Source of the DNA: an uncultured Chloroflexia bacterium
GTDB lineage: Bacteria > Chloroflexota > Chloroflexia > Thermomicrobiales > CFX8
Direction of reading: 5' to 3'
DNA: 64,000 bases
NCBI GenBank assembly: GCA_963729445.1
Contig: CAVSNU010000003.1
Span: forward strand, 995,736 to 1,059,735
Below are positions 13,763 through 25,428 of the stretch, piece by piece. How positions within the stretch are numbered: position 1 is the first letter of the stretch; every line of letters starts with the position of its first letter. A program made the position numbers and the translations under genes. The notes below the pieces were generated by a model. That model was not told where the DNA came from. It worked only from the letters and a program-made list of their open reading frames with translations, and did not search any database.

Positions 13763-14010
13763 TGATGAACAGTGCACATCAGCCGTTGCGCCGTAGGGTT
13801 AGGGATCCTTCGTTCCGCAGAGCCCGCCCCGTGGGCAGATGAAGGGATGACCGTCAAAGCGGTACGCGCTGGCCGATGACTCCTTGGGTTGACGCGAGTG
13901 GATCGTAGTCCATACAACGCCAAACCGGACGGTGGGGGCGGAAGCGTCGTTCTCCCACCTTGACGTAGCCCGAACCGGATGCCACACTGCAGCCATAACT
14001 GAATCTGAGA

Positions 14011-14134
14011 ACGACGGTGGGTGCCCTCTTGGAATGTATCGAAGGGTTCACCCAGGGGAAACCGGTGAGAATCCGGTGCTGTGCCGCAACTGTAACGCGC
14101 GAGAGCGCGAAGCCAGGTCGCCTGCCACCGTCGT
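14011..14134 (+). ncRNA. Cobalamin riboswitch
   Basis: aggggaaaccggtgagaatccggtgctgtgccgcaactgtaa and agccagg..cctgcc conserved blocks; outer stem acgacggtgg/ccaccgtcgt. Confidence 0.93.
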
Positions 14135-14193
14135 CCCCGGGTCACTTCGAGACAGGGTGACAGGGCAGGATCGTCTCCGATCCCTCCCCGAAC

Positions 14194-20280: not shown

Positions 20281-22836
20281 ATGAGTCAATCGTCCCCAGA
20301 CGCTTCCAACGTATCCGGTGAAGCGATGGCAGAGCAAGAAGCTCAGGATGAGACGCTCCGGACAACATTCCATTCGACACCGGACATCAACCGCCTGGCG
20401 CCGGTTCTCCTTCCGACCCTGATCGTGCCGCAGACCCTGCTTCTGCCGCACATGTCGCTTCCTTACCCCATCGATGATGGCGAGGAGTCCAAGGCCATCG
20501 AATATGCGATGGCCCACGACCGCATGCTGCTTGTGCTCGCGGTAAACGATCAGGACGACGAAGACCTGGATTACGACGATGAAGAGACCGTCGAGACACT
20601 GGCCGAGATCTCGGAAGAGAAACCGAACTTCAGCTCGCACAGCTACGGGGTCACCGTCACTGACAATGAGCTCAGCACGGTCGGCGTGATCGCCGAGATC
20701 GGGCACAAGATCGCCCGGCCAGGCGTGCCGGCGCACGTCATCCTGCAAGGTGTCGCGCGAGGCGTCGTCTCTGGTTTTGACCAGCGCGAACCCTTCACCC
20801 TCACCCGCACGCTGCGCTCTGAGGACCCGGTTGAGGAGAGCATGGAGGCGCGCGCCGTCATGGCGAACGTCCTCGATCAGGTCGAGTCCTATGTCGGCAT
20901 GCTGCCCAACGTCCCGGAGGAAGTGGTGACGATGGTGCGCAGCGTCGAAGAGCCGGGCTGGCTGGCAGACCTGATCGCCTTCTCGCCCGAGTTTGGGCCT
21001 GCGCTGCGTCAGGAGATTCTGGAAATCCTGAACCCGGTCCAGCGGCTCCAGAAGATCAGCTCGATCCTGCAGGAGCGGTTGGAATTCCTGGCCCTGCGCC
21101 AGCAGATCCAGTCCGAGGCCCAGGCCGGCATGGATCGTCAACAGCGCGAGATCATGCTGCGGGAGCAATTGCGCACCATCCAGCGCGAGCTCGGCGATAT
21201 CTCGTCCGACGAAGCTATGGCTTCCGAGTTCCGCGAGAAGATCGAAGCCTGCGGCATGCCCGAGGAGGTCAAGGCCAAAGCGCTGCTCCAGGTAGGCCGG
21301 CTCGAGCAGCAGCACCCATTCTCGCCTGAGATCGGCATCATCCAGTCGTATCTCGATTGGCTCACCGAGCTGCCCTGGTCAGTTCAGACAGAAGATCAGC
21401 TTGACCTCGTGCGCGCCGCCGAGATCCTTGACGAAGACCATTACGGTCTGACCAAGGTAAAAGAGCGCATCCTGGAGTTCATCGCCGTGCGCAAGCTCGC
21501 CGGCGACAAGATGCGTTCACCGATCCTCTGTTTCGTTGGACCTCCGGGCGTCGGGAAGACCAGCCTCGGGAAATCGATCGCGCGAGCGCTCGGCCGCTCC
21601 TACTCACGCATGTCGCTCGGTGGTGTGCGCGACGAGGCCGAGATCCGGGGCCACCGGCGCACCTACGTCGGCGCGATGCCAGGCCGCGTGATCAAGGCGA
21701 TCCGCGACGCCGGCACGCGCAACCCGGTGATCGTGCTGGACGAGATCGACAAGGTTGGCTCGGACACGTTCCGGGGCGACCCATCGTCTGCGCTGCTCGA
21801 AGTGCTCGATCCGGAGCAGAACAACAGCTTCTCCGATCACTATCTGGAGGTGCCGTTCGACCTGTCGAAGGTCATGTTTATCACCACCGCCAACATGCTC
21901 GACCCGATTCCGCCGGCGTTGCGAGACCGCATGGAGATCATCGAGGTCCCGAGCTACACCGAGGTTGAGAAGCTGGAGATCGCCCGGCACTTCCTGATTC
22001 CCAAGGCGATGGAAGCCCACGGCTTGCAAGCGGAGCAGTTGACAGTTTCCGAAGACGCTGTCTTGCAGCTCATCCGGGAGTACACCTACGAGGCGGGCGT
22101 CCGCAACCTGGACCGCGAGATCGCGTCAGTCTGTCGCAAAGTCGCCCGCAAGATGGCCGAGGACGACGCACTCGAGCACTACGAGGTGGATACCGGCACC
22201 ATCGGCGAGCTGCTCGGCATTCCGCGCTACGAGTACGGACTTGCCGGAGAGACCGACGAAATCGGCATCTCGACCGGCGCGGCCGTGACGGGCGCTGGCG
22301 GCGATCTGCTCTCGATCGAGGTCACGCTCATGAAGGGCAAGGGTGACCTGCTGCTGACCGGTCAGCTGGGTGACGTGATGCAGGAGTCGGCGCGCGCCGC
22401 CATCTCATACGCGCGCTCGCACGCCGACCAGCTCGGCATCCAGCCCGATTTCTTCGACACGCACACCATCCATCTGCACGTCCCGGCCGGTGCCGTGCCG
22501 AAGGACGGACCATCGGCCGGCCTCCCGATCGCAACGGCGCTCGTCTCAGCTTTGACCGGCATCCCCATTCGCAAGGATGTCGCCATGACCGGCGAGATCA
22601 CCCTGCGTGGCAAGGTACTGCCGATCGGCGGGCTGCGTGAGAAGACGCTCGCTGCCCGGCGCGGCGGCATCACCAGTTTCGTAGCGCCGCAGCGCAACGC
22701 CAAGGACCTTGGCGAGCTACCACAGTCCCTCAAGGAGCAGCTGGATATCCGCCTCGTCACCCGCATCGACGAAGCCCTCGAGATCGCCCTGACCCAGCCG
22801 ATTCGCATCCGCGGTGAGTTGACGGCGGCGACCTAA
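20281..22836 (+). CDS. lon: ATP-dependent Lon protease
   Basis: DHYGL, GPPGVGKTS, RGHRRTYVGAMPG, LDEIDK, PKDGPSAG (catalytic Ser), PIGGLREK (Lys). Confidence 0.97.
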   Translation: MSQSSPDASNVSGEAMAEQEAQDETLRTTFHSTPDINRLAPVLLPTLIVPQTLLLPHMSLPYPIDDGEESKAIEYAMAHDRMLLVLAVNDQDDEDLDYDDEETVETLAEISEEKPNFSSHSYGVTVTDNELSTVGVIAEIGHKIARPGVPAHVILQGVARGVVSGFDQREPFTLTRTLRSEDPVEESMEARAVMANVLDQVESYVGMLPNVPEEVVTMVRSVEEPGWLADLIAFSPEFGPALRQEILEILNPVQRLQKISSILQERLEFLALRQQIQSEAQAGMDRQQREIMLREQLRTIQRELGDISSDEAMASEFREKIEACGMPEEVKAKALLQVGRLEQQHPFSPEIGIIQSYLDWLTELPWSVQTEDQLDLVRAAEILDEDHYGLTKVKERILEFIAVRKLAGDKMRSPILCFVGPPGVGKTSLGKSIARALGRSYSRMSLGGVRDEAEIRGHRRTYVGAMPGRVIKAIRDAGTRNPVIVLDEIDKVGSDTFRGDPSSALLEVLDPEQNNSFSDHYLEVPFDLSKVMFITTANMLDPIPPALRDRMEIIEVPSYTEVEKLEIARHFLIPKAMEAHGLQAEQLTVSEDAVLQLIREYTYEAGVRNLDREIASVCRKVARKMAEDDALEHYEVDTGTIGELLGIPRYEYGLAGETDEIGISTGAAVTGAGGDLLSIEVTLMKGKGDLLLTGQLGDVMQESARAAISYARSHADQLGIQPDFFDTHTIHLHVPAGAVPKDGPSAGLPIATALVSALTGIPIRKDVAMTGEITLRGKVLPIGGLREKTLAARRGGITSFVAPQRNAKDLGELPQSLKEQLDIRLVTRIDEALEIALTQPIRIRGELTAAT

Positions 22837-22856
22837 CATCAACGAAACTCGCCTTT

Positions 22857-22901
22857 CGCAGTCCCCGGAAAGAGTGCTCTCTGCGGGGACTGCGTCGTTT
22901 T
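22857..22901 (+). terminator. Intrinsic terminator after lon
   Basis: cgcagtcccc ... ggggactgcg stem followed by tcgtttt. Confidence 0.7.
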
Positions 22902-23021
22902 ACGGCTTTGGTACCTCCCGGCACTGGCGTTACGCTGGATGGCTATCCATAATGCAATACATGCTGCACCACAATGAAGCAGCCAAGATTCTGTGTCGCC
23001 TCCGGGGGAAGGAAATAGGGC

Positions 23022-23495
23022 GTGCTCAATCTGTTACCGGTACCTCTGCCCTGGTATATCGTCGGGCCACTCATGGGCCTGGTCGTGGCCGGCCTCTATG
23101 CCTCGACCAACAAGCACTTCGGCATCAGTGGGGCCTACGTCCAGATGGTGAGCCTGGCTCAGAGGCGGCCCGTCGAGGCGTGGCGGCTGTGGCTGCTCGG
23201 CGGCACTGTCGTTGGGGCGGCGTTCGTGGCGGTGCTAGGCGAGAGTCCGCAGTTCGGTCTCGGCTATGGGGTTCTGGGAGAGCTGTTGCCGCTTGGGGCG
23301 TTGGTGCTGGTGCTTTTCGCCGGGGGATTGCTGATCGGCTACGGCGCGCGTTGGGCCGGAGCCTGCACGTCCGGCCACGGGCTGAGCGGCTGCGCCACCC
23401 GCTCGCCAGGCAGCCTGGTTGCGATCGTGACCTTCATGGTCACAGCCGTCGGAGTTACGCTGCTCCTGCATCTGGCGACGGGAGGCCGGCTGTGA
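23022..23495 (+). CDS. YeeE/YedE family sulfur-compound transporter half
   Basis: FGISG, GARWAGACTSGHG motif. Confidence 0.9.
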   Translation: MLNLLPVPLPWYIVGPLMGLVVAGLYASTNKHFGISGAYVQMVSLAQRRPVEAWRLWLLGGTVVGAAFVAVLGESPQFGLGYGVLGELLPLGALVLVLFAGGLLIGYGARWAGACTSGHGLSGCATRSPGSLVAIVTFMVTAVGVTLLLHLATGGRL

Positions 23496-23950
23496 ATCGC
23501 TTGAATCTCGTCTGCTCGCTCTTCGGTCTTGCGTTCGGTTTTCTGTTCGCGGCAGCCGGATTGAACCAGTACGATGTCATCCACAGCATGTTGCTTCTGG
23601 AGAACTTCGAACCCTTCCTGATCATGGGCTCAGCCATGGGAACAGCTCTGCCGATCCTGTGGATTCTGGAGAAGCGTGGCTGGCACACTCCGCTCGGCGG
23701 CCAGCTGACCCTGACACGCTGGCAGTTCGAGAGCAAGCACATCGGCGGCGGCATTGTGTTCGGAACGGGCTGGGCGATTACCGGCGCATGTCCGGGCACG
23801 ATCTCCACGACGATCGGCGCGGGCAGCCTGCTCGGCGTTGTGCTCATGGCTGGCGCGCTGGCCGGCATCGTGGCGCGGGACACGGTTGCGCGCAAACTCG
23901 CTCCGCCCCAGGCACAACCAAGCGCAGAAGCGTTCACGACTGCCGGCTAG
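23492..23950 (+). CDS. YeeE/YedE family sulfur-compound transporter half
   Basis: GTG overlapping the previous stop; GGIVFGTGWAITGACPG motif. Confidence 0.88.
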   Translation: MNRLNLVCSLFGLAFGFLFAAAGLNQYDVIHSMLLLENFEPFLIMGSAMGTALPILWILEKRGWHTPLGGQLTLTRWQFESKHIGGGIVFGTGWAITGACPGTISTTIGAGSLLGVVLMAGALAGIVARDTVARKLAPPQAQPSAEAFTTAG

Positions 23951-23955
23951 CTGCG

Positions 23956-23989
23956 CATTGTGACCGTCGTCGCAGTGTCATACTCGTGC
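23956..23989. repeat. Direct repeat copy 1
   Basis: cattgtgaccgtcgtcgcagtgtcatactcgtgc; recurs at 24430-24479 with an internal duplication. Confidence 0.9.
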
Positions 23990-24254
23990 ATTCTACCTAG
24001 ACGCTCGGCTTCAGAAACATAGTAGTTAGCAAAGGAATTAAAACAACGTGGCCAAAGTATCCGCTTCCTGATCAAAAAGTACGAAAGTCCCGCGATCTGA
24101 GAGTTTTATGCCCACCAACGTACCTTTACTTCCATTACTGTGGAACCATATAATGCCATGTATGAACGTACATTCCACCGTCAATGCCGCTTAGAGAACG
24201 TTTGGGCAGCGTGATCACAATGGAAGCGTAGATTCTTAAGAGATCCAGCGACAA

Positions 24255-24330
24255 TTGAATAAGGCGGTGATGAAGCACGGGTTGTATTTGGGCACCTAAC
24301 CCGTGTGGAGCCAGTGGTGCAACCGGCCGA
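24255..24330 (+). ncRNA. c-di-GMP-II riboswitch
   Basis: gatgaa kink-turn strand, stem acgggtt/aacccgt with gggcac loop, then gagccagtggtgcaaccggcc (gcac/gtgc pseudoknot); matches the class II consensus as I recall it. Confidence 0.85.
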
Positions 24331-24350
24331 CTCGTCGAGCCGGTTTTTTT
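24321..24350 (+). terminator. Riboswitch-overlapping intrinsic terminator
   Basis: aaccggc-cgactcgtcga-gccggtt plus T run; the 5' arm is the aptamer 3' end. Confidence 0.85.
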
Positions 24351-24429
24351 GTGCCCGCAATTCAGTTCCTTTTAAACCGTATATGTGGTTAAGAACATAT
24401 GAGTGCTACTCAAAATTCCTGTAAAAGGC

Positions 24430-24479
24430 CATTGTGACCGTCGTCGCAGTGGTCTATACTCGCAGTGTCATACTCGTGC
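24430..24479 (+). promoter_or_regulatory. Direct repeat copy 2; forms a sigma70-like promoter for darA
   Basis: TTGTGA-17 nt-TATACT within the repeat. Confidence 0.6.
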
Positions 24480-24540
24480 GTGAGCATGTCTAGGACAGAT
24501 TCAGGTGCGGCCTGGCCGTGCCCAACCGGGGGTAAGCTGC

Positions 24541-24876
24541 ATGAAGCTCATTTTCGCGATCGTCCAGGACGAAGATGTCGAAAACCTATCGGATGCTCTG
24601 GTTGCCGAGGGATTCCGCTCAACCCGCATCGGCAGCACCGGCTCTTTCCTGCGGATGGGCAACAGCAGTCTCATGATCGGCGTGGAGGATCATCAGGTTC
24701 CTCACGTCACATCCATCGTGCGACGCACTTGCCGGCGCAGAAAGCAGATGGCAGTCCCGTATTCACCTGCCCTCGAACCGGGCTTGCTCTACATGCCGGA
24801 GAACTTCGAAGTCGAAGTTGGCGGCGCGGTCCTCATGGTCCACAACGTTGAGCGTTTCGAACGCGTTCTCGTCTAG
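24541..24876 (+). CDS. darA: Cyclic-di-AMP receptor, PII-like (DarA/PstA, DUF970)
   Basis: MKLIFAIVQDED, STRIGSTGSFLRMGN, CRRR, VEVGGA. Confidence 0.9.
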   Translation: MKLIFAIVQDEDVENLSDALVAEGFRSTRIGSTGSFLRMGNSSLMIGVEDHQVPHVTSIVRRTCRRRKQMAVPYSPALEPGLLYMPENFEVEVGGAVLMVHNVERFERVLV

Positions 24877-24896
24877 ATTCACCTTCAACATGGTTC

Positions 24897-25226
24897 CGTA
24901 GCGGCGCAATTCATTGCGTGGCATCTGACCACCAGGGTGTCCGAGAGGACGCGGTGATGGAACTTGACCTCGTAATCCGCTATGCACAAACATTCGTAGC
25001 GGCGCAATAAATTGCGCCCTCTCCGGCGTCCGAGTCGCCAAGCAAGGCGCAATGATGAAGATGTCCTGGTTTATCCGATAATTGAGAGGGCATCGTCTGC
25101 GTAGCGGCGCAATGCATTGCGCCCTCTCCGGCGCCCGAGCGGTCAGGCAAGGCGCAATAAATTGCGCCGCTACGCGTTCCTATTTACCGGATCAATCAGG
25201 ACAACCTCATCATTGCGCCGCTACGC
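24897..25226. repeat. GTAG-type REP cluster
   Basis: cgtagcggcgcaat(aa/gc/tc)attgcg at about 24897, 24995 and 25100; inverse attgcgccgctacg at about 25160 and 25212. Confidence 0.85.
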
Positions 25227-25428
25227 ATTCCTGATGAACAGATGAAGTCGGACACCTCCATCATGGGGCCCGTGCGAACCAAAGTGGCCCTTGCAAATAG
25301 CGGCTTACGTTGGACAATAGCAGCGTCGCGCCGTTTCCAGCGCCCCGGTATCCGCGCGAGGGGTAGTGAGCTGCGCCCGGACGAAGAACGACGTCCTGTT
25401 GTTGGACCCTATATGAAAGGATCGCCTG

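Follow-up and report, generated by a model that had tools for sequence, protein, structure and literature searches.

A c-di-GMP-II riboswitch module, probably a young insertion, upstream of the native promoter of a DarA-like gene in an uncultured Thermomicrobiales bacterium

ON switches of the c-di-GMP-II type have been described in Clostridia, for example, before the type IV pilin gene of Clostridioides difficile. The closest described counterparts of the riboswitch analyzed here are Rfam family RF01786 and structure 3Q3Z, for which excerpts of PMC13715770 give A69, A70, and G73 as ligand contacts. Its downstream gene is best compared to those of the PstA/DarA receptors, namely, Bacillus subtilis YaaQ (4RLE), Staphylococcus aureus PstA (4D3H and 4WK1), and Listeria monocytogenes PstA (4RWW); the c-di-AMP contacts of PstA/DarA, as given in excerpts of PMC4475381, include Arg26, Thr28, Gly34, Gly35, Phe36, Leu37, Asn41, Gly47, Gly94, Thr97, Phe99, and His108. 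A further point of reference is DarB-Rel, which, according to excerpts of PMC7900238, links c-di-AMP to (p)ppGpp. We analyzed a 64-kb stretch of DNA (here called the window) from genome G000, which comprises 4.06 Mb in 5 contigs with about 61% GC. The features of the locus are listed in Table 1. Like RF01786/3Q3Z as excerpted in PMC13715770, the locus has the helices, the pseudoknot, the AACCGG ligand block, and a terminator overlapping the 3' end of the aptamer. However, its host is an uncultured Thermomicrobiales bacterium (Chloroflexota), its outer P1 stem is very short, and it stands before a gene resembling a c-di-AMP receptor and not before a surface, polysaccharide, or two-component gene (the usual targets in this bacterial family are given below). 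Moreover, the gene is separated from the switch by a second promoter that does not depend on the riboswitch.

Table 1. Positions of the features at the yeeE-darA locus, numbered within the window
Feature	Position	Strand	Evidence
Upstream 34-nt copy of the repeat derived from the darA promoter region	23956..23989	+	Repeat search; aligned to the single copy in G001
Putative inserted low-GC leader module (promoter, leader, aptamer, terminator, part of a foreign leader)	23990..24429	+	GC content; absence from L008
Promoter-like TTTACT-18-TATAAT, presumed start of the riboswitch transcript	24125..24154	+	Consensus match alone
c-di-GMP-II aptamer	24256..24337	+	Rfam score; conserved columns; family covariation
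Intrinsic terminator (hairpin 24321-24345 plus U7)	24321..24351	+	Fold; 5' arm formed by the AACCGGCC end of the aptamer
Remnant of a sugar-transferase leader after the terminator	24361..24423	+	Similarity to L038 1602-1664; blast to G001:C231
Downstream full repeat copy, native darA promoter region	24430..24479	+	Promoter scan; repeat; G001 alignment
Gene for a DarA/PstA-like PII-type protein, 111 aa	24541..24876	+	PF06153; structure matches

At Rfam gathering thresholds, cmscan of the 64-kb window returned an RF01786 match of 67.3 bits against a cut-off of 53.5 (E = 6.7e-13), which covers model positions 1 to 84 of 84 and is one of two Rfam matches in the whole window. A second cmscan of 23900-25300 gave the identical match (E = 1.5e-14), and among the six RF01786 matches in the G000 genome, four of which are above the cut-off, the window copy is the top scoring. 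We then considered an alignment of 20 aptamers, made up of the window copy and 19 others from G000 and its family. The window copy agrees with the other 19 in 25 of the 25 columns that are invariant among them and in 30 of the 30 that are at least 90% conserved. Across the alignment, 94.8% of the cells of P1, P2, P3, and the pseudoknot are standard pairs, and compensatory changes on both sides were found at 11 of the 21 pairs; none of 500 shuffles reached any of the five pairing measures, and control structures slid by 1 to 3 columns were just 29 to 45% paired. Read from the same alignment, all 21 pairs of the window copy itself are standard. All 20 aptamers have the AACCGG block (24321-24326 in the window copy) unchanged, and by our mapping it would hold the A69, A70, and G73 contacts of 3Q3Z. 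As for weak points, most of the outer P1 stem in the Rfam model fails to pair in this copy, with five nonstandard pairs, and the fold of aptamer plus terminator is no more stable than those of shuffled sequences (z = −0.99). Altogether, these comparisons indicate that the window holds a canonical, full-length, and intact class II c-di-GMP aptamer. Far upstream, a cobalamin riboswitch was found at 14001-14143 (+), with 51.4 bits against a cut-off of 31.5.

Folding of 24318-24352 yielded a hairpin of −14.4 kcal/mol and then U7 at 24344-24350, that is, a GC-rich hairpin directly followed by a U tract. The aptamer's 3' end supplies the 5' arm of this hairpin (24321-24330), which is made up of the AACCGG block and two C residues of P1; the ligand-stabilized aptamer and the terminator would therefore be mutually exclusive, which is an ON design. 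A simple terminator pattern scan gave no site in 23800-25400, the riboswitch hairpin being included among those missed, and we attribute this miss to the bulged stem, which fails the stem/loop rule of the scan. The hairpin and U tract are also kept in the paralogous leaders L002, L038, L039, and L040; L002, L039, and L040 precede genes for sugar transferases of the Bac_transf family, and L038 ends just inside one. Upstream of the aptamer, the promoter-like TTTACT-18-TATAAT matches the consensus at 10 of 12 positions, and the region has two promoter-like sites compared to 0.5 ± 0.7 in shuffles; the site at 24125-24154 is presumably active. A class II c-di-GMP aptamer, a strong terminator overlapped by it, and a TATAAT candidate at 24149-24154 had all been named in the initial annotation of this DNA, and each was recovered at its place by the searches above. 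The initial annotation had also proposed an ON switch. The overlap between the terminator 5' arm and the aptamer 3' end makes ON the natural reading; the ON behavior itself we infer from the sequence.

The open reading frame downstream of the terminator matches PF06153 (CdAMP_rec) with 120.8 bits against a cut-off of 27 (E = 3.9e-35), residues 1 to 108 lying on profile positions 1 to 108 of 109. Like the receptors of B. subtilis, S. aureus, and L. monocytogenes, the protein belongs to this Pfam family, and it aligns full length and free of gaps with the PstA/DarA structures 4D3G/4D3H, 4WK1, 4RWW, and 4RLE (E = 1.7e-24 to 3.4e-21). In alignment with the contacts excerpted from PMC4475381, eight are kept (R26, T28, G34, F36, L37, N41, G47, and G94). 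On the other hand, unlike the DarA/PstA receptors, the window protein differs at four contact residues (G35S, T97V, F99M, and H108R) and scores 115 bits with the NCBIfam DarA equivalog (NF058593), below the cut-off of 140, and it is therefore named DarA-like and not DarA (the gene is called darA below for brevity). Binding of c-di-AMP by the DarA-like protein is plausible. PF06153 is found in three full-length and two truncated genes of G000, the window darA being one of the full-length three. The two fragments are N-terminal, have 70 residues each and identical scores, and lie at G000:C2:243773-243982 and G000:C4:4269-4478; one of them is on a 5.5-kb contig, and they may represent a duplicated or separately assembled segment. 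The genome also encodes 1 DAC-domain gene (146.7 bits) and 10 GGDEF-domain genes, and the presence of both messengers, c-di-GMP and c-di-AMP, in the organism is plausible.

The start codon of darA lies 189 nt past the last U of the terminator, in line with the distance of about 190 nt given in the initial annotation. That annotation had taken darA to be the first downstream gene, and the pattern scan indeed flagged no further terminator-like site between 24352 and 24541. Its caveat that darA appears to have its own promoter after the terminator was likewise borne out. A TTGTGA-17-TATACT promoter-like site was identified at 24432-24460, beyond the riboswitch terminator, and the distance from its TATACT box to the downstream ATG is 86 nt in G000 as well as in the same-genus genome G001. 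Furthermore, 15 of 16 family loci have such a box 45 to 91 nt upstream of the start codon, and it is rare outside the family (7 of 80 loci). Since TATACT is conserved in G001 and in the family loci, the downstream copy of the repeat described below is taken to be the native darA promoter. On the other side of darA, the gap between darA and an M20 peptidase gene (24884-25262) is filled by a cluster of REP-like palindromic repeats, whose 13-nt core has 62 copies in the genome and whose reverse complement has 58.

The riboswitch lies within a segment of 440 nt that has 45.7% GC compared to about 61% for the genome. A 34-nt stretch immediately before this segment is repeated immediately after it, the latter copy with 16 extra nt, and the 22-nt core of the repeat occurs at just two sites in the 4.06-Mb genome, both flanking the segment. 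In G001, the same yeeE-darA locus (L008) was found on one contig without the segment. The yeeE and darA blocks are 107 nt apart in G001 and 576 nt apart in G000, and G001 holds one copy of the repeat, in the long form, with the TATACT box inside. The DNA of the two genomes is 79% identical over the yeeE-like gene and 87% identical over darA, and the two DarA proteins are 98% identical. These data point to a young insertion of the riboswitch module upstream of the native darA promoter, seen in one species only, and by this comparison the insertion has duplicated 34 nt of the darA promoter region. In the upstream repeat copy, the lost 16 nt sat between two 8-nt direct repeats; this loss removes the TATACT box, so the upstream copy is probably a crippled promoter. 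A mobile element was considered and rejected, as the insert has no open reading frame of at least 60 aa and no terminal inverted repeats. With respect to the wider neighborhood, 12 of the 29 loci from relatives (L011, L012, and L014 to L023) have the C terminus of a Lon protease as the immediate upstream neighbor of darA, and a yeeE-like sulfur-transport pair lies between lon and darA (window 20281-24541) only in G000 and G001; the lon-darA spot has therefore apparently taken up DNA more than once.

Within G000, only the aptamer-plus-terminator part of the insert has relatives, at 87% identity to L002. In blast searches, this part is 87 to 89% identical to L002, G012:C182, and G007:C20. The best family match was the leader G001:C231, with 79% identity over query positions 273 to 423 (24262-24412), which spans the aptamer, the terminator, and then about 60 nt further; the gene behind the G001:C231 leader starts like the L002 sugar transferase. 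Moreover, the stretch after the terminator, aligned ungapped to L038 1602-1664, scored 42, compared to 18.0 ± 3.4 for shuffles, 0 of 500 of which scored as high. In view of the match to the G001:C231 leader and the significant score of the post-terminator part, the insert is read as a truncated paralogue of a polysaccharide-operon leader. Compared to the Bac_transf leaders (G000 L002, G001:C231, G012:C182, and G007:C20), it has the terminator design in common and 63 nt past the terminator that can be aligned to G001:C231, but it is truncated before the sugar-transferase start and faces darA instead. By these alignments, the gene whose leader is paralogous to the module encodes an exopolysaccharide sugar transferase. 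The first 270 nt of the insert had no significant match in the genome or the family; compared to the leaders, this upstream part shares just an 11-nt word around the −35 box, and 21 of 200 shuffles scored as high, which is not significant. We also surveyed the family for RF01786 targets, taken as the longest open reading frame starting within 700 nt downstream, at 17 loci (two further loci ran off their contigs). The targets were OmpR-type response regulators (6 of 17), Bac_transf sugar transferases (3 of 17), family-2 glycosyltransferases (2 of 17), histidine kinases (2 of 17), proteins with no Pfam family (3 of 17), and an S24 peptidase that is distant, 598 nt away (1 of 17). As judged from this survey, a sugar-transferase gene is an ordinary target of the c-di-GMP-II class in the family.

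The initial annotation had suggested that darA leaders in relatives be checked, and this check lent no support to a shared regulatory theme: the aptamer is present in none of the other Thermomicrobiales darA loci examined. Rfam searches at E ≤ 0.01 gave 0 matches in the orthologous darA loci of 29 relatives, one locus from each. A regular expression for the aptamer core motif had 0 hits in 109 other darA loci, comprising these 29 and 80 further named Thermomicrobiales loci. Our own covariance model, R1, returned from 99 other darA loci only a wrong-strand match of 12.3 bits (E = 0.92); R1 was built on an RNAalifold consensus in which only 8 pseudoknot pairs were kept, works mostly by sequence, and scored 87.7 bits on its positive control, L007. 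These sets of darA loci overlap, some contigs being in twice, and all of the loci are from Thermomicrobiales. In the survey of relatives, 122 aptamer matches were found in 45 of 61 genomes, and among the 150 listed of 217 PF06153 matches, the window's aptamer is the only one that sits in a PF06153 leader; these tallies include the unpublished genomes G031 and G047, and the result is the same without them. Among the listed matches, seven contigs carry both an aptamer and a PF06153 gene (G006:C5, G024:C55, G036:C72, G041:C15, G045:C1, G048:C2, and G051:C1). Comparison of the tables by eye found no aptamer in a darA leader on any of the seven; the pair on G024:C55 is 9.4 kb apart. The nearest other case is on G036:C72, where a PF06153 paralogue is followed, 2.4 kb downstream, by a tandem aptamer. 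Finally, a search of metagenomes for the aptamer core, a gap of 88 to 118 nt, and then the promoter word yielded 21 loci, none with darA or any resemblance to the insert, so we regard them as chance co-occurrences. Thus, the wiring of the aptamer to darA appears to be lineage specific and not conserved. The survey of relatives also turned up tandem c-di-GMP-II aptamers on the same strand, 75 to 235 nt from start to start, in many genomes: at G051:C2:1154769/1154935, G006:C5:745669/745835, and G036:C72:17999/18159, as well as on G056:C10, G059:C361, G027:C20, G043:C293, G053:C11, G050:C313, G035:C52, and G023:C288, and on G031:C3 of an unpublished genome.

We lean toward a young riboswitch capture, in which a c-di-GMP-gated ON input has been placed atop riboswitch-independent darA transcription. 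According to this reading, the lineage of this species acquired the module by insertion into the stretch that separates the yeeE-like gene from the native darA promoter, and darA would now be fed by two tandem inputs. The first would be transcription from the upstream promoter, together with any read-through from yeeE, halted at the terminator unless c-di-GMP keeps the AACCGGCC segment inside the aptamer, in which case the terminator would be bypassed. The second would be the native promoter, transcribing darA regardless of the riboswitch. With two inputs in tandem, high c-di-GMP would add read-through transcripts and would not be required for darA expression. We hold more tentatively, at a little short of an even chance, the stronger claim that the leader of a polysaccharide operon was the source from which the whole promoter-aptamer-terminator module was copied, and that the copy gives a working c-di-GMP-to-c-di-AMP link in one species, through which biofilm-type signaling would lift a PII-like c-di-AMP sensor above its basal expression. 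Cross-talk between c-di-GMP and c-di-AMP at darA is thus a possibility suggested by the arrangement. The proposal of the initial annotation that c-di-GMP raises the expression of a c-di-AMP sensor stands insofar as the parts of a switch are intact before darA; on the other hand, the arrangement is an insertion in one genome, and the native promoter has been retained.

Contigs from four sequencing runs were compared to 23700-24900. X1 has contigs identical to darA. In the metagenome DNA of X2, the left edge of the insert is spanned by a 261-nt contig at 23882-24140, which differs from the window at 7 letters and has 2 gaps; this edge therefore exists in another data set. A second X2 contig (record 6) is 98.8% identical to the window over 24429-24592 (2 differences) and has 50 unlike letters before 24429, exactly where the insert ends on the right; this contig may represent an insert-free allele in a close strain. 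In the RNA runs X5 and X6, a 257-nt contig each covers 24478-24734 and ends at 24478 without a loose end, and a DNA contig continues past this point to 24429. These ends are a weak hint that the darA mRNA starts at the native promoter; the X5 and X6 records come from two studies but are identical and may not be independent. Contig coverage leaves out 24141-24288 and 24332-24428, and the RNA contigs leave out the insert, which we treat as holes and not as evidence.

Several of these observations would also suit a neutral passenger, a segment brought in by illegitimate recombination that is intact because it is young, has a weak or silent promoter, and leaves darA to its native promoter alone, with no meaningful cross-talk. 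We consider this unlikely, but it is the alternative to which we give the most weight. It would account for the confinement of the arrangement to a single species and for a native darA promoter that is both kept and conserved, and it is weakly favored by RNA contigs that begin at 24478. The possible insert-free allele of X2 would also fit, as would the fact that the lon-darA region has taken up other DNA, yeeE being there only in G000 and G001. However, the conserved aptamer positions, the 21 pairs, the terminator, and the near-consensus −10 box are all intact, and an insert with about 3% differences in a metagenome contig is not private to one assembly. Moreover, should the promoter fire at all, an intact ON switch that is followed by no further terminator could hardly prevent all read-through into darA.

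That the module works by itself, either as a transcript of about 190 nt (about 24161-24350) serving as a small RNA or c-di-GMP sink or through a terminator that insulates darA from yeeE read-through, seems improbable to us. The module does have its own promoter-like site and a strong terminator, and the pattern scan flagged no terminator-like site from the yeeE stop (23950) to the insert, so that transcripts coming from upstream would run into this one. Nevertheless, the unit is not conserved outside G000, the homologues of the module in relatives act in cis as ordinary leaders, and Rfam gave no small RNA above chance in 23900-25300, the best other match being Hrs13 with 20.3 bits against a cut-off of 52. 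An assembly artefact, in which a low-GC segment was misjoined in a metagenome-derived genome, is very improbable. The segment is atypical in GC and flanked by repeats, and the genome is apparently a metagenome-assembled one, as are those of the relatives; however, the locus lies inside a 1.41-Mb contig, and the X2 contig bridges its left edge. As the right edge is bridged by no contig, this support against an artefact is partial. Least credible of all is a shift to another ligand, such as a cGAMP-type dinucleotide in place of c-di-GMP: a one-nucleotide deletion sufficed for cGAMP binding by an engineered variant of the Bacillus halodurans c-di-GMP-II aptamer (PMC13715770, in excerpts), but the window copy matches all of the invariant and near-invariant columns and keeps AACCGG with the mapped A69, A70, and G73, so that nothing in it suggests a changed input.

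The riboswitch class and the receptor family were both known; what is new at this locus is their pairing and the visible route by which it seems to have arisen. The wiring was not known to be described when the DNA was first annotated, and our literature searches likewise found no description of a c-di-GMP riboswitch paired with a c-di-AMP receptor, the gene lists of the original description of the class (Science 2010) lying outside their reach. As in DarB-Rel (PMC7900238, in excerpts), the pathway of one messenger would enter the signaling protein of another. The known link, however, is protein-protein and was shown experimentally, whereas the one proposed here would be an RNA switch acting on receptor transcription and is read from sequence. 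If the switch does not work, a local rearrangement has left an ordinary copy of the riboswitch stranded at this locus. If it does work, the young riboswitch capture that we favor would amount to a direct RNA-level link from a c-di-GMP input to a c-di-AMP receptor output. It would then also show, in a clean and datable case, how a gene is added to a riboswitch regulon, with a whole leader moved and the old promoter left in place, and G001, which lacks the insert, gives the before-and-after states for comparison.
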